Below, piece after piece: positions 1,101-10,024 of a stretch of 10,024 nt of DNA. The stretch comes from a virus. Taxonomy: Duplodnaviria; Heunggongvirae; Uroviricota; Caudoviricetes. The DNA lies in IMG/VR virus record IMGVR_UViG_2671180864_000013; one strand, 5' to 3'. Within the stretch, counting starts at the first letter, position 1, and each line of letters begins with the position of its first letter. The position numbers and the translations under genes were made by a program. The notes under the pieces are model-generated. The model ran no database searches and was not told the DNA's origin. It worked only from the letters and a program-made list of their open reading frames with translations.

Positions 1101-1180
1101 TTCCGCGCCGACCCGCCCCGTGGACAGGCCCCCCCCACCAGGAGGACCCGCAAAAAAGGCGGCTGCTGCCGCCTTGTTCT
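1101..1180. repeat. Copy A of an ~80-bp repeat (C-rich core 1112-1144 plus terminator hairpin)
   Basis: Aligns in register with 3631-3710; the 33-bp core cccgccccgtggacaggccNcccccaccaggag matches 32/33. Confidence 0.7.
1151..1175 (-). terminator. Intrinsic terminator ending the capsid operon
   Basis: Minus-strand RNA reads AAGGCGGC-AGCA-GCCGCCUU followed by UUUUG, starting a few bases after the capsid stop at 1180. Confidence 0.6.
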
Positions 1181-3060
1181 CATGAAGAAATCGCTCTGAC
1201 CATTCCGCGATAATCCAGAGCAGCAACGCCAGCATCAATGCGGACCTTCCAGGCCACACCGTCAACAATAAAGCCCTCCTGCTGCTCAAGGTAAGGCTCG
1301 TCATTACCGTCAAGATAAGCCACCTCAATTGTGTCCGTTCCCTGTGCTGAAAGCATGTACCATTGCTTATCACTGACTTCATCAAGGCGGGGATCGACAA
1401 TAATATCCAGTTGTTTGTGGTACGGGTTATATGAACCACTGTTTGTATCGGCACCGAAAGGCGTGGTTGAGTTAACCATTTGCAACGCTCTGTCTTCCAG
1501 AGCCGCAGGAACAAGAAGGAATTTTGGCACAATATTCAGCACCTCACCGTTTTCATCCCTCTGTGTGCGCATTGCACGGCGTGCAATGCCAAGCCCTGTA
1601 GTGCTGACTCCGTTATCAATATCATTTCCGTGTTTTTTGCTGAACAGCGGTATACCGTCAGAAAGCTTTGTGTTTCCTGTCAGCACCAGATGAACCAGAT
1701 TACCCACCGTTCTGGCGGCTGCTCGCCCCATTGCCTGTGGGATAACTGTTAACTGATTCAGGTCATCGTTAATAATCGCCTGTCGGGTAATGCTGAAAAT
1801 ATTTCCGTAAGTTGCCAGCGCGATTGGTTCGCCACGGTCACTGGTGGTGATGTATTTATATTCCGCGCCTTCCGGCACTTTGTTTAATGTAGAGAAGCCA
1901 TTCAGGCCAACACGACGTGCCTCATGGAAGTTTGACAATGAACCTTTTTTCGTCCACTGGCGGAACGTTTCGCCGCTGTGTTCCCATCCGGCAAGCACGG
2001 ATTTTTCAGCACCACCAGCAAGGATATAAGTAAAATCGCTGCTGCTGTGGGTGAATGCCGCGTTTACTATCTGCGAGCGTGTGCTGTAGCTGCCTGTGCT
2101 TATGCCGCGATGGGTTAATGATGCCTGTGCCATATCGAAAAGGCTCATCATGGCGTAAGGGTTGCCGCGTTCTGCCTGTTCATGTCCCAGACGCGCATTA
2201 AGCCCCTGACGCATTGCATCGCCGGTTATGTTGCCGTTATCCGTGTACGCGTAGTAAAGATTTGCGGGGGTGGTTTTGTTTGTCGGTGTCGATTCTTTAC
2301 CCATAGTGAGTAAAAGGCGTTCGCGTGCATCCTCAACGCTACAGCCTGAATCAGCAAGACAACTTATAGCCAGGTCGTTATATCTTCCATTGAACGTGCC
2401 AAACAATTCACGTATCCCGTTGAGTCGTTCCTGTTCTCCGCTGCCAGTTTTCTGGCTGATCATGCTTTTAATATTTTCCGGCATATTCGAAAAATCTCCG
2501 ATTCGTTTTGATTCAATTCTGGCCATTGCTGTAATCGCGGGTATAACCTCATCTGCGAAGCCATTAGCCTTACACTCATTGCCATCCATCCAGGTTTCCG
2601 CCTCCATCATGGCGGTGATTTCCTGTTTGCTCCTGCCCGTTCTTCCGGCGTAGGTTTCCGCCATCGTGTCGCCCAGCTTGTCCATCAGGTCAGCAAAGCG
2701 GCGAACGTCGCCCGACACTCCGGCAGTAACACCACGGGGGGCATGTATCATCATCATCGCGTTTTCAGGCATAACGATGTGATCGCCACACATGGCAATA
2801 AACGAGGCCATAGAAGCCGCCATGCCTTCAATGTGTACAATTTTCTTTGCCGGATGATTTTTCAGGGCGTTATAGATAGCCAGCCCTTCAAAGATGTCGC
2901 CACCAGGTGAATGGATGCGAAGATGGATTTCAGGCACATTACCGCACGCGTTGATCTCGTCAGTAAGTGCCGATGCTTTTACACCGTACCCGCCGATCTC
3001 GTCATAAATGCGTACATGTACAACATCAGCCATAGCCTTAATGGAAAACCATGTTTTCAT
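1180..3060 (-). CDS. Fused prohead protease (ClpP / S14-like) and HK97-fold major capsid protein, 626 aa
   Basis: N-terminal ~180 aa carry ClpP-like motifs (IHSPGGDIFEGLAIYNAL ... GMAASMASFIAMCGDHIVMPENAMMMIHAP). The C-terminal ~430 aa resemble HK97-type major capsid proteins. AGGAG RBS 8 nt upstream of the ATG at 3058-3060. Confidence 0.8.
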   Translation of the reverse strand: MKTWFSIKAMADVVHVRIYDEIGGYGVKASALTDEINACGNVPEIHLRIHSPGGDIFEGLAIYNALKNHPAKKIVHIEGMAASMASFIAMCGDHIVMPENAMMMIHAPRGVTAGVSGDVRRFADLMDKLGDTMAETYAGRTGRSKQEITAMMEAETWMDGNECKANGFADEVIPAITAMARIESKRIGDFSNMPENIKSMISQKTGSGEQERLNGIRELFGTFNGRYNDLAISCLADSGCSVEDARERLLLTMGKESTPTNKTTPANLYYAYTDNGNITGDAMRQGLNARLGHEQAERGNPYAMMSLFDMAQASLTHRGISTGSYSTRSQIVNAAFTHSSSDFTYILAGGAEKSVLAGWEHSGETFRQWTKKGSLSNFHEARRVGLNGFSTLNKVPEGAEYKYITTSDRGEPIALATYGNIFSITRQAIINDDLNQLTVIPQAMGRAAARTVGNLVHLVLTGNTKLSDGIPLFSKKHGNDIDNGVSTTGLGIARRAMRTQRDENGEVLNIVPKFLLVPAALEDRALQMVNSTTPFGADTNSGSYNPYHKQLDIIVDPRLDEVSDKQWYMLSAQGTDTIEVAYLDGNDEPYLEQQEGFIVDGVAWKVRIDAGVAALDYRGMVRAISS

Positions 3061-4429: not shown

Positions 4430-4657
4430 CTTCACCTGTTCACCTTTTGCAATTTTCCCTTTTTATTCATGATGTTAATGGGTTAACAGTTTCACAAAAA
4501 CTATTCACCAACTGTTCACCACTGTTCACCCTTAAAGCTCAATAAAGAATCAAAAAGGTGAACAGTGAATAGTTTGGTGAACAGTTCATAAATAACTGTT
4601 CACCCTATAATATACTGATATAAAAGACATTTATTGCAGGGTGAACAGTGGTGAACA
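4430..4657. repeat. Replication origin candidate: eight perfect TGTTCACC / GGTGAACA octamers plus variants, with AT-rich tracts
   Basis: Forward TGTTCACC at 4437, 4513, 4523, 4597; reverse GGTGAACA at 4557, 4576, 4640, 4650; variants at 4430-4436 and 4502-4509. Two tandem pairs have 10-bp spacing. Sits immediately 3' of the primase gene. Confidence 0.7.
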
Positions 4658-4698
4658 GTTATTCCATAAGTTTAATTTTTTCCATCGTCATTTGTGAC

Positions 4699-6489
4699 CT
4701 ATGCACATGATGGCATCCAGTCTTCTGAATCCTCTGTCAGGGTCACATTTGAACGCAAACCGTGCTTCGTTTTCCGTTTCATATACTCCCTGCCATATTC
4801 CGCCATTGCCCCCGGCATATCTTTACCGAAGCGCGTCAGTGTTACAGGTTTACCGAATCCGTGTGCCCTCATATATGCCAGATAGGCGTGATAAAGATAC
4901 CTGCGCGGACTGAACGGAATAATTTCGGCATTACCCACTAACAGACCATCACACATTACCGACGACATGAGATAGCCGCAGAAGTCCACCAGCGAATCGC
5001 CCTCGCGTTTTATCACCAGAGCTTCTTCTGATTTCTGCTGCTCATACAGCAGGCGTTTAGCTTCGTCCTGGTCAGAAAAACGAGTAAGCAGGTGGCGAAT
5101 CACAACCGCCAGCTCTCCTTCTATTTTTTCTGCCAGCATGGGGTCGCGTTCGTTCTCCGGTACAACTTCCGAAAAATTGAATATCACCCGACGACGTGAG
5201 ATCCCCCCGCTGCGGTCACTGAATGACATGGCGTTATTGTTAACCGCCAGCACTACTGCCGGAATACGCGTTGAGTAGGGGGCTTTGTGTTTCGGGTCAA
5301 TTGCCACCTTGTCACCGCCTGTAATGGCCTTAATCCCTGCCCCATCACCAGCGTAGCGGGTCATATCCGGCATGATAATCAGCGAAAAGCCAACCACTAA
5401 CGCGCGTTCCCTTGCATCTTCCAGCGCCTTCATGCTTGCCGATACTGTGTTGGCCTTACCCGCCAGCATGGTGCAAATCTCCGCCATCACGCTTTTACCA
5501 CTTCCCCCTGGACCTGTTACCTCAATGAATAACTGCCAGTCGTACCGGTTCGCCAGCACCATGAATAATACAGCCAGTACGCGATCCGCCTTGCGGTCAT
5601 TCTCAGCCACCGAACGGCGTAACCACTTCCAGAAATTCGGCGCATGTGTTGCCAGCGTTTCCCCCTCTGCTGGTGGGCTGAAAGGTAATTCACTGGCAAT
5701 TAACAACCAGTCGTTTTTGTTATGCTCCCGAAAATTACCTGTTCTGGTATCAAATACCCCGTTACTGAATCCAATCAGGTTACGGGCTGTATTCCCCATT
5801 ACAGGCAAACTTAACTTCATGGTATCGACCGCCGATTTAATGGCGTTCTGCGAATAGCTGATCTCCGCATCAATGAAAATCTGTGCCATAGCTCGCTGTA
5901 ATTCTTTATCCTGTACTGGCTCCCATACAACGCCGTTGTAATGGTGAACAGTGTCAGAGTCAGCATGAATCGCCAGTTCACCGCCATAATGTGCCAGGAG
6001 AACTTCGCCGCGTTGACTTGCTCCCATCTGGTTAAGCGCCAGTGATGAAGCGTTATCGTCTTTTACCCGCTCTTTTTTCTTTACAGGCAGTTCAACTACC
6101 TTTTTCTTTTCCGCCTGCTCTGCCCGTTCACGTTCCAGATATTCGCGCCAGTTCTCCCGTTTCTGGCTGTGCATTCCTTCAGGGTAATAATCAGCATCCC
6201 TGACACCTGCCACTGCCAGTTTCTGCCCGATGGTATTAACAAGCCCCGGACGCAATAACCCCGCCTGATAGAGACGCACGCGATAGCGTCCGTCCGGTAC
6301 GATTTGCAGGTTGTCCAGTTCGGCAAGTTGTTGCTCTCCAAGCCAGACAGGTGGCACGTTATCGCCAGCCAGTCGCCCGTCCTGTTCCTGCCACTGTTTC
6401 GCATGTGCCCACGCATCACTACCCGCAAAAATGATGACTTCCGTCATTTTGTCACGCGGCTGGTGTTTTAAATTTGGCGCTTTTTTCAT
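4699..6489 (-). CDS. Replication protein: primase / SF3 helicase (P4 alpha-like, D5-type NTPase), 596 aa
   Basis: Walker A motif GPGGSGKS inside a P4-family NTPase-like region. Start taken at the ATG at 6487-6489 (GGAGAG RBS; ATGA overlap with the upstream ORF stop) rather than the GTG at 6504. Iteron origin lies directly downstream. Confidence 0.85.
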   Translation of the reverse strand: MKKAPNLKHQPRDKMTEVIIFAGSDAWAHAKQWQEQDGRLAGDNVPPVWLGEQQLAELDNLQIVPDGRYRVRLYQAGLLRPGLVNTIGQKLAVAGVRDADYYPEGMHSQKRENWREYLERERAEQAEKKKVVELPVKKKERVKDDNASSLALNQMGASQRGEVLLAHYGGELAIHADSDTVHHYNGVVWEPVQDKELQRAMAQIFIDAEISYSQNAIKSAVDTMKLSLPVMGNTARNLIGFSNGVFDTRTGNFREHNKNDWLLIASELPFSPPAEGETLATHAPNFWKWLRRSVAENDRKADRVLAVLFMVLANRYDWQLFIEVTGPGGSGKSVMAEICTMLAGKANTVSASMKALEDARERALVVGFSLIIMPDMTRYAGDGAGIKAITGGDKVAIDPKHKAPYSTRIPAVVLAVNNNAMSFSDRSGGISRRRVIFNFSEVVPENERDPMLAEKIEGELAVVIRHLLTRFSDQDEAKRLLYEQQKSEEALVIKREGDSLVDFCGYLMSSVMCDGLLVGNAEIIPFSPRRYLYHAYLAYMRAHGFGKPVTLTRFGKDMPGAMAEYGREYMKRKTKHGLRSNVTLTEDSEDWMPSCA

Positions 6490-6785
6490 TTCTGCTCTCT
6501 CCACGCGGCAATCATGTTTTTTAGTTCCTGTAGTTTTTTATCAACATCCATACATGACACATGGTTATTTCTGGAAAGCGGGATTTCCCGACTGAATCTG
6601 CTAATAAAGATCTCCACGTTCAGCGAACTAAGAAATGAATAGCCATCACGGATAAAATACACACGGTCAAACATCAGTTCTTTTACCGTTACTCTGTTAC
6701 CGTTCTTATCCAGATAAATAGCGCCGGGGATAATTTGGGGGTGTGCATAACCGCTGGCAGTCAAGCCAGATAAATACGTTCTCAT
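6486..6785 (-). CDS. Hypothetical protein (99 aa), coupled to the primase gene
   Basis: ATG at 6783-6785; its TGA stop overlaps the primase ATG. No recognisable motif. Confidence 0.5.
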   Translation of the reverse strand: MRTYLSGLTASGYAHPQIIPGAIYLDKNGNRVTVKELMFDRVYFIRDGYSFLSSLNVEIFISRFSREIPLSRNNHVSCMDVDKKLQELKNMIAAWREQK

Positions 6786-6791
6786 GATTAT

Positions 6792-7112
6792 TTATCCCCG
6801 ATTTGAATCAGTATTCGCTTTCTTTATAGCATTTAATGCATCTGTGGCATTTTCAATGGTGCACCGTAACGAAATATCAAAATGTCCAAGCATTGCCAGT
6901 AACAAACCGATATTACCCATATCAATGCGCATGGCCTTTTCGTCATAGTCCTCATTTTCTGACGCATGCCACATCAGGCTACCAATTGACGCAACAGCCA
7001 TTGATATATTGTCAGTAGCCCCATCCGCAGCGGAATAAACCTTTTTAGCAATATCATGCTCACAGTTAAAATGCGGATTAATCAGGTACTGGTAATTTGA
7101 CATATCAGGCAT
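6792..7112 (-). CDS. Hypothetical acidic protein (106 aa)
   Basis: ATG at 7110-7112 preceded by a G-run; overlaps the upstream ORF stop by 8 nt. Asp/Glu-rich. Confidence 0.5.
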   Translation of the reverse strand: MPDMSNYQYLINPHFNCEHDIAKKVYSAADGATDNISMAVASIGSLMWHASENEDYDEKAMRIDMGNIGLLLAMLGHFDISLRCTIENATDALNAIKKANTDSNRG

Positions 7113-7308
7113 GGCACCCCCCCTGACGAATACGGGCGGCGAATACCATCACGCAGCCAGCCGGGGATTGCTGGCGTGCTTCCTGTTCGCTGCTGGCCTC
7201 AATGGTAATCACGCGCGGTTGTGCCGTGCTCAGGGCGATAAAACGCCAGATGTATTTATTCAGGTTGTACGAGTCCCGCCCTTGCGGGTGTATGGTATGA
7301 TTTCTCAT
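7105..7308 (-). CDS. Hypothetical small protein (67 aa), first gene of the leftward operon
   Basis: Start taken at the internal ATG (7306-7308) with a GAGG RBS. The track ORF begins at a TTG at 7398, only 9 bp from the operator palindrome and without a clean RBS, so that extension is less likely. Confidence 0.4.
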   Translation of the reverse strand: MRNHTIHPQGRDSYNLNKYIWRFIALSTAQPRVITIEASSEQEARQQSPAGCVMVFAARIRQGGCHA

Positions 7309-7406
7309 AGCTGCCTCGATACTCTCGTTATCGTTGGTGGTTAGACGCCCCGTATGTGTTTCCGGCACTGCGGGGCGTTGCTCTTTGTATTTCAACAATC
7401 CTTTCG

Positions 7407-7484
7407 GTGTGTTTCATGTTATGAGCGCATGAAACACACGTCAAGGCTTTTTGTATTTCTTTTTTTGTGTATACTGAAACACAC
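7407..7484. promoter_or_regulatory. Divergent promoter/operator switch
   Basis: 12-bp inverted repeat GTGTGTTTCATG (7407-7418) / CATGAAACACAC (7428-7439) with a 9-bp spacer, plus a third GAAACACAC half-site (7476-7484). Leftward sigma70-like promoter TTGACG (7444-7439)-N17-TAACAT (7421-7416) is overlapped by the palindrome. Rightward -10 TATACT (7470-7475) abuts the third half-site. Confidence 0.55.
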
Positions 7485-7505
7485 CGATGATTAGGAGTTT
7501 CAGAA

Positions 7506-7811
7506 ATGGCAACGGCTAACAAAAACGCAAAATCACAACTGACAACTGTCAGAGTCCCACTAGATGTTATGCAAGGGATGGAATCCGTTAAGCTGGACGG
7601 CGAAAGCAATGCCGGATTTATCGTAACCGCCATGCGCGGAGAAATAGCCCGCCGCCAAGCAGAAGGCAGCGGAGAAAATCCCCTTGTGTCGTCACTGGAT
7701 GCCCTGGCTAAGGTCGAACAAATCGGCATCAAAGCAGCGGAAGAAATCGGGCAGCTTGTCACCGTTGCACGCGAAGAACTCCAGCGTCGCAAGACCAAAG
7801 AACCAGAGTAA
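7506..7811 (+). CDS. Putative ribbon-helix-helix (CopG/Arc-like) DNA-binding regulator, 101 aa
   Basis: AGGAG RBS (7493-7497) 8 nt before the ATG. N-terminus fits the RHH pattern (TTVRVPLDVMQGMESVKLDGESNAGFIVTAM). Codon usage looks coding; the opposite-strand 272-aa ORF looks like an antisense artefact. Confidence 0.55.
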   Translation: MATANKNAKSQLTTVRVPLDVMQGMESVKLDGESNAGFIVTAMRGEIARRQAEGSGENPLVSSLDALAKVEQIGIKAAEEIGQLVTVAREELQRRKTKEPE

Positions 7812-7868
7812 TCACCATCAGCGCCGTGGTGTAAGGTATTACGGCGCATTGCTATGCAGGACAACACA

Positions 7869-8042
7869 ATGACCGATAAAGAATTGACCAAAACATTATC
7901 ACCGGCACGGAAAAGACGGCGCAGAAAGATAGAGCATGAATCAGAAAGATTCGCGCCATGTGCTTTTGCTCTTGAGAAATTCCTTAAAGAGCACAGGAAA
8001 AAGCTCTCGTTGCAAACCTTGGAACGAACAAAATCTGACTGA
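7869..8042 (+). CDS. Hypothetical small basic protein (57 aa)
   Basis: ATG at 7869 with AGGA 7 nt upstream (the track ORF starts at 7854). Lys/Arg-rich (RKRRRRK). Followed by a plus-strand terminator. Confidence 0.3.
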   Translation: MTDKELTKTLSPARKRRRRKIEHESERFAPCAFALEKFLKEHRKKLSLQTLERTKSD

Positions 8043-8109
8043 TCACATTGCCCACCAGCCGCAAATGTGGCATTGTTGGTGATGCGTTCAAGTTTAGTGT
8101 GTATCCATT

Positions 8110-8137
8110 GGCGACCGCCCCCGGTCGTCTTTGTTTT
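8110..8137 (+). terminator. Intrinsic terminator of the plus-strand unit, convergent with alpA
   Basis: Stem 8110-8116 / 8123-8129 (GC-rich, one G-U wobble), 6-nt loop, then TTTGTTTT (8130-8137). Confidence 0.5.
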
Positions 8138-8156
8138 ATATGTCATATGCTCCCCT

Positions 8157-8366
8157 TTACGCTGCCTTACCTGAATTAATGCGATCCCGGCTTTTAACCC
8201 ATTCCATAACCTCGGACAGCAGCCAACCTACAGAACGCCCACCAAGATTACGGCGAGACGGAAAGCTCCCTTTTTTCTCCAGTTCGTAGCGTGTAGTGCG
8301 ACACACTCCAGTTAACTTACGACATTCATCCTCACGGATTACGCGATCTTCATTTATTTCACGCAT
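8157..8366 (-). CDS. alpA: AlpA-family (prophage CP4-57 regulatory protein-like) transcriptional regulator, 69 aa
   Basis: The segment RVIREDECRKLTGVCRTTRYELEKKGSFPSRRNLGGRSVGWLLSEVMEWVKSR parallels E. coli AlpA by eye. Start uncertain: ATG at 8364-8366 gives typical AlpA length but has no RBS; the GTG at 8451-8453 has an AAGAGG directly upstream and gives 98 aa. Confidence 0.75.
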   Translation of the reverse strand: MREINEDRVIREDECRKLTGVCRTTRYELEKKGSFPSRRNLGGRSVGWLLSEVMEWVKSRDRINSGKAA

Positions 8367-8785
8367 ACAAAAACCTACATAAAAATTACGTATATAAACT
8401 TTTCTCTTAGCTGTAGATATATGAGATCGGATATTACTTAGATTCTTTTTCACCTCTTAAATTAAAAACACAACCATACTAAAGGCTTTGTTCGCTAAGG
8501 TTCGTAGAAGCTCGTTAGTGTTTAAAATCGTGTCACGAGTTTTTAAGCGACGCAACAAAAAATGTCGTCATTTGGCATGTCACCTGAATTACCTCATTAA
8601 AAACAAATAGATAAACCATCAGGTGTTGGAACAATCAAGAAACAGAGAATAAGAACTCAGAAGAAGACATTTCAATTTTTTTCGATAGTTGACACATATA
8701 AAGAGAAGATATTTGCAGATATTCCCCGATATTCTAAGATCTATTCACGGCTGTAATCTCTTAAAGAAAAAACAGCCGTAATTTG

Positions 8786-10024
8786 TCAAGAATTTTGGGG
8801 GTAAATTCGCGGGGTCATAACAACGATTTTTTCATCATTGTTCTGGAGAAGCTCGAGACGGTCTACCCATAGATTAAGAGCGTCACGCTTTGCATCGAGA
8901 TAACGGGAGTGGTTATAGACGCGTTGCATTCCTGGCATCTGGTGGGCAGTAAGCTGTTCGACAATATGCGGATCCACGCCTAAATCGTTCAGCATGGTTG
9001 TAAATGTGTGCCGGATGTCGTGCAACGACCAGGGGGTTTGATTAATGCGTCTGTGTGCCGTTCTTCCGTACTCTGCTACGGATGATTGCCCTTTCAGTTC
9101 TCCAAGCAATAAGCCCGTGTGCCTGTTCTGCTCCACCAGCTTCATGACGAACGGCAAGATCGCTTCCGGTATTGGCCTGAATATTGCTACCTTCGTTTTG
9201 CTGTGTTCTTTCGGCACAGTCCAGAGCATTTCTTTAAAATCCCATTCCCGAACCTCGGAGCGTCTTAGCTCAGTGGTACGGCATCCGAAGACAATCAGAA
9301 GGCGAATTAAAGCGCTGTAGTACGGCGGGAAAATTTTTTCATCCAGTGCGCGGAGTAGCTCGCCAAGCTCCTTGTTTGTTAGCACTCGCTCGCTTATTTC
9401 TGCTTTTTTTCCCACATCACCTACGACCATATCATCAAGAACGTTACTGACGGCGTAGCGACGTTTACGGCAGTACTTAAGCGCCTGTTTGCATACCTGC
9501 AACAAAAAGCCGGCTGATACCGGATTACGCTTAGCAAGCTGGTCAAAACAGGCCAGCCAGTGGCGTAGCTCGCATTTATCCAGCGGCATAGCACCAATCT
9601 GGCTGATTATGTGCTTATTGATACGGCTTTTCAGTGATTCGTGGTCAGTGCGCTTTTCCTTCGCATACGACTCAAGCCAGTAAGTGAGCGCGTCCTTAAC
9701 CGTCACAGGGGCTAACGCTTCCTGCACTGTGTGATTAAGCTCATGGCGTGGATTTTTCCCCTCCGCCAGCCAGGCGCGACACTGTGCCGCTTTTTCCCTG
9801 GCTGCTTTCAGGCTCAGATCGGGATAGTTGCCCAGTCTCAGGCGTTCCGGTGATACCTGCCTGCCAGTTCCGGCCCTGTAAGTGAAATACCAGGTTAACA
9901 GGCCGCTGGTGGAATGTCTTACGCTAAGATTGCCACCGTCATTAAAAAAGGCGTTTTTTGTGGTTGGTGATCCGCTTAATTTTCGTAAAAGAGTGTCGCT
10001 AAGTCTATGAATTGCGCTGCTCAT
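8786..10024 (-). CDS. int: Tyrosine recombinase / integrase, P4-like, 412 aa
   Basis: N-terminal arm-binding-like region (FNDGGNLSVRH ... WYFTYR ... LGNYPDLSLKAAREKA) and C-terminal catalytic region with HDIRHT and downstream Tyr. The ATG is at the window edge, so a longer N-terminus cannot be excluded. Confidence 0.9.
   Translation of the reverse strand: MSSAIHRLSDTLLRKLSGSPTTKNAFFNDGGNLSVRHSTSGLLTWYFTYRAGTGRQVSPERLRLGNYPDLSLKAAREKAAQCRAWLAEGKNPRHELNHTVQEALAPVTVKDALTYWLESYAKEKRTDHESLKSRINKHIISQIGAMPLDKCELRHWLACFDQLAKRNPVSAGFLLQVCKQALKYCRKRRYAVSNVLDDMVVGDVGKKAEISERVLTNKELGELLRALDEKIFPPYYSALIRLLIVFGCRTTELRRSEVREWDFKEMLWTVPKEHSKTKVAIFRPIPEAILPFVMKLVEQNRHTGLLLGELKGQSSVAEYGRTAHRRINQTPWSLHDIRHTFTTMLNDLGVDPHIVEQLTAHQMPGMQRVYNHSRYLDAKRDALNLWVDRLELLQNNDEKIVVMTPRIYPQNS

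Follow-up and report, generated by a model that had tools for sequence, protein, structure and literature searches.

The promoter region between a gene for a 101-aa YlcI/YnfO-family protein and the replication operon of an Escherichia coli phage-satellite island carries an array of four, probably five, short sites spaced about two helical turns apart. The positions of the sites are kept among related islands while their sequence differs, and every site class goes together with a single variant of a short stretch of the protein, the N-terminal part of which is predicted to fold as a ribbon-helix-helix (RHH) domain. The likely explanation is that the protein is an Mnt-like RHH repressor, which blocks the promoter of the icd–primase operon (P_L) and autoregulates its own promoter (P_R). 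An RHH repressor, phased operators and divergent promoters are all known in kind; what is new is a candidate repressor with many classes for this widespread satellite family, believed so far to have none.

Gram-negative PICIs are now explained by an activator-only model, in which a helper induces alpA and AlpA switches the island on. A cis-encoded repressor with class-specific operators, if real, would explain why the replication operon is silent. The operator classes would then permit a rational sorting of these very common islands into specificity groups, and the repressor–operator pairs could serve as orthogonal parts in the engineering of PICI-based delivery vehicles.

The satellite island and its divergent module

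The analysed stretch of DNA (10,024 bp, hereafter the window) is a part of the island, the left end of which falls outside it. Gram-negative PICIs were recognised by int, alpA and a primase gene with a downstream iteron origin, by having no lysis or tail genes and by a size of about 10–15 kb. The window fits this pattern: it contains int, alpA, the primase gene and the iterons, and also genes for SSB and a protease–capsid fusion. The tyrosine integrase gene int (8786–10024) and alpA, encoding an AlpA-family HTH protein (8157–8366; PF05930, E = 4.8e-16; also a RefSeq CDS), are located on the minus strand. The regulator gene (7506–7811, plus strand) is preceded by a Shine–Dalgarno sequence, AGGAG (7493–7497), and converges on alpA, which is situated about 700 bp from the sites. 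Downstream of the regulator gene, co-oriented and co-transcribed with it, lies orf62 (7854–8042, plus strand; RefSeq start 7869). Its product is very basic, with an RKRRRRK run; it belongs to phrog_21027 of unknown function and is annotated as hypothetical. An intrinsic terminator for the rightward transcript, made up of GGCGACCGCCCCCGGTCGTC and then TTTGTTTTAT, was found at 8110–8129, with a T-run on the plus strand only. The path of the leftward alpA transcript toward the regulator gene shows no obvious intrinsic terminator.

The operon on the other side of the array runs leftward. Its first gene is Icd-like (7105–7308, minus strand), as indicated by NF033153, Pfam and PHROG matches and by the RefSeq annotation of a near-identical locus. 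It is followed by a phrog_15327 ORF, a DUF4222 gene, the gene of a D5-type primase (4699–6504, minus strand), a small ORF, the SSB gene and the protease/capsid gene. The latter (1180–3060, minus strand) encodes a 626-aa fusion of a ClpP-like prohead protease and a major capsid protein (NF045540, 863 bits); the island has a capsid protein of its own. About nine copies of ACTGTTCACC in both orientations occupy positions 4435–4664, in the gap just 3′ of the primase gene, and these iterons are probably the replication origin of the island. PADLOC matched no defence system among the products of the regulator gene, orf62, the icd-like gene, the 6792–7112 ORF and alpA.

The closest complete relative is an island of ~10 kb located between clpS and cspD in strain 19SZHZ663Rt, with a regulatory region 99.9% identical to that of the window. 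Another locus (L001) combines a near-identical regulatory module with another primase (DUF927) and with capsid/decoration/TerS genes that also differ; this shows that mosaicism is strong. The same divergent module is present in EcCICFT073, the prototype Gram-negative PICI (L177, 5931–16655, E. coli CFT073). Here int and alpA are followed by a leftward hypothetical gene and a gene for a 59-aa YlcI-family protein, the latter divergent from icd-like, DUF4222, primase and SSB genes, so the order int–alpA / YlcI-like / icd-like / primase is common to both islands.

The putative operator array and the two predicted promoters

Direct reading and a repeat search found GTGTGTTTCATG (7407–7418) and CATGAAACACAC (7428–7439), 9 nt apart, and a third exact copy of TGAAACACAC at 7475–7484. 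A perfect 13-mer is common to the outer and the third site (TCGGTGTGTTTCA at 7404–7416 and TGAAACACACCGA at 7475–7487). At a tolerance of up to one mismatch, the 10,024-bp window contains only three copies of the 10-mer, which all fall inside the same 78 bp. Shuffled windows contained 0.81 matches anywhere on average, and three matches were reached in 6 of 200 shuffles. The clustering of the repeats is far beyond chance.

An earlier sequence-only reading had reported the inverted repeat at 7407–7439 and the third copy, both of which are present as described, and had interpreted them as three half-sites. Four to five phased sites were found instead, owing to the addition of S3 and S0. The predicted +1 of P_L falls within S1 (GTGTGTTTCA, 7407–7416), which directly adjoins the P_L −10. 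The P_L spacer is filled by S2 (TGAAACACAC, 7430–7439), which touches the −35. The degenerate S3 (TTGTATTTCT, 7451–7460) lies over the −35/spacer region of the rightward promoter, and S4 (TGAAACACAC, 7475–7484) begins on the final base of the rightward −10 and extends over the +1 predicted for that promoter. The position of S3, −53 from the ATG, carries class-specific sequence in other classes too, and in all 11 aligned loci of the window's own class (class 1) it is occupied by TTGTATTTC or CTGTATTTC. The possible fifth site, S0 (TTGTATTTCA, 7385–7394), lies to the left of S1 at a distance of 22 bp; on the predicted leftward transcript this is about +15 to +24. It matches S1 at 8 of 10 positions, a score equalled by 1.4% of background windows, and it has a 14-nt flank repeat in common with S3; a class-specific S0 is present in 5 of 14 class representatives. 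The start-to-start spacings from S0 to S4 are 22, 23, 21 and 24 bp. A copy of TGTGTTTC in a hairpin loop (7355–7362) was considered as a sixth site and rejected, as it is not kept in other class-1 loci.

P_L, a sigma-70-like promoter on the minus strand, consists of a −35 hexamer TTGACG (7444–7439), a 17-nt spacer and a −10 hexamer TAACAT (7421–7416). It scored 9/12 in the consensus scan and was one of two matches of the promoter scan in 7000–8600. Its start is predicted near 7409, an A-rich stretch is situated upstream of the −35 and the −35 (GTCAAG) is kept in nearly all classes. Both the scan and the coordinates thus bear out the proposal of a leftward promoter that heads the icd–primase operon and is overlapped by the repeats. 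The rightward promoter proposed along with it can be maintained in part. A candidate −10, TATACT (7470–7475, plus strand), does abut the third site, with a predicted start near 7482; across the classes T1 and A2 of this hexamer are kept, T6 is kept in all but two classes and the distance to the ATG is fixed. A good −35 was not found, and the consensus scan of 7000–8600 called no plus-strand promoter there.

To the left of the array, a conserved hairpin (7344–7379) is structured on the plus strand only and is followed by a U-rich tail. In 34 diverse loci the plus-strand pairing comprises 325 Watson–Crick and 46 G–U cells, with three gapped cells and none that are non-standard; the minus strand yielded no more than two 3-bp helices, one outer and one inner. 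The plus-strand RNA of 7308–7395 folds at −37.1 kcal/mol (z −4.56) and the minus-strand RNA at −22.5 kcal/mol (z −2.24). A −10-like hexamer, TATGAT (7296–7301), is part of TGGTATGAT (7293–7301) in the window, and a T-A-N-N-N-T hexamer 37–38 nt upstream of the hairpin is fixed even in non-homologous icd alleles. The whole plus-strand element at 7293–7395, opposite the icd leader, has the appearance of a two-hairpin RNA. The hairpin probably terminates a small RNA that runs antisense to the icd leader; this RNA would probably be about 85 nt long and cover the icd ribosome-binding site. An Rfam scan of the whole window at E values up to 1 returned no match for the putative antisense RNA and no C4 or isrK; the only matches were spurious plant miRNA hits on the ACTGTTCACC iterons.

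The regulator and its co-variation with the sites

The regulator passes the NCBIfam model NF041551 (YlcI/YnfO) with 63.2 bits against a cutoff of 30 over residues 9–50, and an identical protein, WP_000179579.1, is annotated by RefSeq as a YlcI/YnfO family member. The AlphaFold2 monomer model obtained with 24 homologues (pLDDT 79.9) features an extended N-terminus, helices at 19–28 and 35–54 and a single long helix at 59–98. A beta-strand followed by two helices within about 45 residues, the arrangement taken to define the RHH fold, is found in the N-terminal part of the model, and this part superposes on RHH antitoxins, CopG and NikR. The sequence D-G-E-S-N (residues 31–35) precedes helix B and fits the RHH turn G-x-S/T/N. 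Among the 24 homologues E33 is invariant, G32 and S34 are conserved in most and position 34 is S or T in nearly all. The regulator is thus predicted to comprise an N-terminal RHH domain (about residues 10–54) and a long C-terminal helix, and the RHH-like nature ascribed to the 101-aa product from the letters alone agrees with both the modelled structure and the turn motif.

The strand motif, x-x-R-x-P-x-[DE]-V (R-x-P-x-D-V), resembles the strands of Arc (NLRWPREV) and Mnt (NFRMPMEV). An hhalign comparison with Mnt was not significant (E 0.058 over 14 columns), with the alignment placed at the expected strand. Pfam searches at cutoffs of 0.01 and 5 gave no above-threshold family for the regulator, and the Arc family was absent from the Pfam matches listed for it; PF07704 appeared below threshold in 18 of 24 family members, with a best E of 0.0011. 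Foldseek returned no match of the full model to the PDB. A sequence-profile search of the PDB produced a weak HhH-like match to Hef in the C-terminal half (E 0.0042), and an HhH-like fold of this half is not supported by the AlphaFold model with its one long helix. The C-terminal half may be an oligomerisation part or a docking surface for an inducer. The namesake of the family, YlcI of E. coli K-12 (L178, 7252–7446), is a protein of 64 aa with the strand motif NIRFPNQM, encoded next to the cos/nohD region of the lambdoid prophage DLP12; no obvious comparable four-site array was seen upstream of its gene.

About 175 loci encoding relatives of the 101-aa protein were collected from one-genome-per-species contigs, metagenomes, IMG/VR and E. 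coli genomes. They represent E. coli, Xenorhabdus, Photorhabdus, Serratia, Enterobacter, Erwinia, Pantoea, Phytobacter and metagenomes. Among 5,426 complete E. coli genomes, 262 have the class-1 cassette itself and 1,762 have DNA related to it. The best repeated 9-mer family of most classes comprises four copies, placed about −98, −76, −53 and −31 relative to the regulator ATG; no shuffled control exceeded three (means 1.5–2.0). These positions are kept across at least 11 classes of differing site sequence (~175 loci), and the orientation of the sites also varies in some.

Each class pairs with exactly one variant of regulator residues about 10–17. In class 1 the variant LTTVRV goes with the site GTGTGTTTCA. 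QISIRI is found with GTGTGATT(T/C)A, SLTARI with GTGTAAG, MTTIRV with GTGAGATATAC, LKNIRI with GTGTGTATTTA, IKNVRV with GTGTGCAT, QLNARF with GTGGTATTCA, QINARF with GGGATTCA and ALKARV, the variant of EcCICFT073, with GGTGTGGCCCAC. A further beta-strand variant, MKNIRF, is likewise paired with a site class of its own, and LKNIRI is grouped with VKNVRI. The one-to-one co-variation speaks for the earlier proposal that the repeats are operators of the 7506–7811 product, and it provides indirect support for a dimer with an antiparallel beta-ribbon that would read the major groove. The LTTVRV and MTTIRV variants differ in few N-terminal residues and have very different sites; either specificity is set by very few residues, or the class assignment is wrong.

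In class 1 (11 aligned loci from E. coli, Xenorhabdus, Photorhabdus, Serratia and metagenomic relatives), column identity in loci from six genera is 98% for S1, 94% for S2 and 99% for S4, compared with only 62–72% for the flank, the S1–S2 spacer and the 5′ UTR. Conservation of the half-sites in related islands extends to the sequence within class 1 (94–99%) and to the positions alone between classes. In the LKNIRI, IKNVRV, MTTIRV and ALKARV classes, S1 and S2 keep their positions and repeat in direct orientation; EcCICFT073 has two direct GGTGTGGCCCAC repeats and degenerate S3 and S4 positions. The inverted-repeat symmetry described in the sequence-only reading is thus not what is conserved in the array. 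Changes of orientation at fixed positions fit a two-fold symmetric RHH dimer, as for the omega repressor. A module of the same class was found twice in one genome in Xenorhabdus vietnamensis (NZ_MUBJ01000038.1; L009 and L010) and in one IMG/VR genome (L140 and L141), so the classes are not obviously mutually exclusive, as strict immunity groups might be.

Other products of the island do not follow the site classes. AlpA proteins 98.7–100% identical to that of the window are found with four site classes, and identical sites are found with AlpA alleles only 43–82% identical. Icd-like proteins 92–97% identical to that of the window also occur with four site classes; within other class-1 loci, the Icd-like identity is 42–45% or undetectable. 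The alleles of orf62 reassort in the same way. AlpA, the Icd-like protein and orf62 were therefore rejected as readers of the sites, since their alleles reassort freely against the site class. The Icd-like family bears the label ‘transcriptional repressor’ in PHROGs.

The C-terminal half of the regulator (residues about 52–101; 7660–7811) keeps 86–96% identity from one class to another, and its exchange does not follow that of the N-terminal domain; the hairpin to the left of 7380 is also shuffled apart from the sites. When the window is compared with loci L170 (class SLTARI) and L055, the flanks are 97–100% identical, and identity falls to 33–53% in 30-nt segments starting at 7356–7416 and to 50% in those starting at 7476 and 7536; strong divergence is limited to about 7356–7565. 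Recombination breakpoints separate the hairpin from S0/S1 on the left, and on the right they fall within the regulator gene, near codon 20–50. The operator array and about the first 20 regulator codons (7385–7565) are thus exchanged as a unit and can be called a specificity cassette. The operators and the N-terminal codons are neighbours on the DNA, and some of their co-variation is due to linkage; breakpoints placed in this way favour co-selection of the recognition region with the sites.

Proposed repression, rival readings and related systems

Because the sites occupy the core of P_L and the −10/+1 of the regulator's own promoter, repression with autoregulation is their natural reading. RHH dimers would bind the four sites, and probably a fifth, at a period of 22–23 bp over 7385–7484. 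S1 and S2 bracket the P_L −10 and spacer, and when occupied they would shut out RNA polymerase, so that the icd-like/DUF4222/primase/SSB operon stays silent while the island is integrated; S0, where present, would be bound just downstream of the P_L start. S3 and S4, over the regulator's own promoter, would provide negative autoregulation. Recognition would reside in the first ~20 residues, i.e., the N-terminal arm and the beta-strand, and the conserved C-terminal helix would probably bridge dimers at adjacent sites, whatever oligomer they form. Operators and recognition residues would evolve and recombine together as an immunity-like cassette. The autoregulating repressor operator of the sequence-only reading is hence sustained as to the operator–regulator pairing and the overlap with the promoters; binding and repression, with the sign of regulation and the transcription starts, are deduced from position.

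An alternative is that the regulator and orf62 form a type II toxin–antitoxin-like or addiction pair, the sites serving antitoxin autoregulation only and the overlap with P_L being incidental. This seems unlikely. Pfam, NCBIfam and PADLOC matched orf62 to no toxin family, tblastn detected it in 94 of the 175 related loci and no co-variation links it to the regulator's C-terminal half. In addition, two to three of the sites (S0–S2) lie over P_L and not over P_R and are as conserved as S4, and the EcCICFT073 homologue has no C-terminal helix.

The sites might also be read by a protein from elsewhere, of the helper phage or the host, with the RHH protein hitch-hiking or acting as a centromere binder. 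Phased repeat arrays bound by RHH proteins do act as plasmid centromeres as well (ParG, omega), and linkage alone could create some co-variation of protein and sites. However, the breakpoints keep the recognition region and the sites together while all else is shuffled, no ParA/ParF-type partner is encoded in the window and a tblastn search of 50,697 phage records with the regulator family gave no match, which leaves this explanation with little probability.

AlpA is the obvious candidate for an activator that would bind the repeats and switch on the leftward operon: its gene is ~700 bp away, and induction of EcCICFT073 needs AlpA, which activates downstream genes there (PMC6092414). The occurrence of near-identical AlpA with four site classes, and of identical sites with 43–82% identical AlpA, means that AlpA cannot be the reader of the class-specific bases, and sites inside a core promoter are in the location of a repressor, not of an activator; we regard this possibility as very remote. 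Finally, the perfect 12-bp inverted repeat with its 9-nt loop could fold, but its action as a cruciform, an RNA hairpin or a terminator can be discarded with near certainty, as the hairpin is impossible in the direct-repeat classes, the repeat lies mostly upstream of the predicted P_L start and no compensatory, stem-preserving S1/S2 changes were seen across all classes.

The repressor reading has to be reconciled with the published induction of EcCICFT073, in which AlpA is an activator required for induction, helpers raise alpA expression and overexpression of AlpA alone leads to excision and replication (PMC6092414). The 2018 paper that founded the AlpA activator model called the existence of a repressor unclear (PMC6092414). 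In later papers, YlcI/YnfO is listed only as an accessory prophage-associated protein (PMC13612085), and the zone from alpA to the replication genes is described through Bro-network proteins and immunity RNAs (PMC10111431). In the literature that could be searched, neither these operators nor any repressor of Gram-negative PICIs, RHH or other, is described. Since published helper sensing is placed at alpA expression (PMC6092414), the suggestion that the regulator–operator pair may be the checkpoint that senses the helper sits uneasily with it, and nothing in the present results supports that suggestion.

EcCICFT073 is fully AlpA-inducible with a regulator homologue of only 59 aa, consisting of the RHH domain alone, and the regulator is therefore not the sole gate. 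We would guess that AlpA works either upstream of the switch or over it. One speculative route would be leftward transcription from the alpA promoter running antisense through the regulator gene into the operon; the terminator at 8110–8129 acts on the rightward transcript only, so alpA transcription could reach the regulator gene and the operon. A far-reaching version would make the YlcI-like RHH protein the missing master repressor of Escherichia-type PICIs/cf-PICIs, with at least 11 satellite ‘immunity’ groups defined by its exchangeable cassette of N-terminal region and operators, the C-terminal helix as an induction handle and the antisense RNA as a second lock. The handle would then be flipped by AlpA-driven convergent transcription, or by a helper or AlpA-dependent anti-repressor. 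We propose this version tentatively and consider it rather doubtful.

Among known systems, the module is similar to P22 immI (Mnt, Arc; O_mnt/O_arc; P_ant/P_mnt; sar), where the operators lie over both promoters and the repressor, a small RHH protein that carries a helical oligomerisation segment at its C-terminus, is transcribed divergently from the operon under its control. The putative ~85-nt antisense RNA, possibly a small cis-antisense RNA of the module, would be the analogue of sar. P22 differs in having one operator with half-sites a single turn apart, compared with four to five sites with a period of 22–23 bp here, and in controlling an antirepressor rather than a satellite replication operon headed by an icd-like gene. 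With regard to an Mnt-type tetramer, in which two RHH dimers are held together by a C-terminal coiled coil, a single helix (59–98) is predicted here, and the EcCICFT073 homologue is without this segment.

The analogy with the Stl/str switch, drawn in the sequence-only reading, holds for the layout and not for the type of protein. As with SaPI Stl and PICI Rpr, the regulator gene is near int (about 1 kb here) and divergent from the replication operon, and the operators are in the shared intergenic region. Stl is not known to be an RHH protein, and it is much larger. Stl repression is relieved by direct binding of a helper protein; the present regulator has no known anti-repressor. Unlike Stl, the present regulator has an RHH fold by prediction, and its gene converges on alpA and int, whereas stl is co-oriented with int (PMC6092414). 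The AlpA-dependent induction of EcCICFT073 and EcCIEDL933 concerns elements of the same kind, with alpA present in the window as well.

The RHH dimers of omega (pSM19035), CopG and ParG bind arrays of short repeats, direct or inverted. The flips of orientation at fixed positions resemble the case of omega; the omega repeats are contiguous heptads, whereas the sites here are two helical turns apart, with no partition or copy-control context. The Icd-like first gene (NF033153) also recalls P1 immI (c4 RNA – icd – ant) and the P4 CI RNA, and a layer of RNA control is likely. P1 c4 and P4 CI are processed from the sense transcript, whereas the conserved structure here is on the strand opposite the operon.
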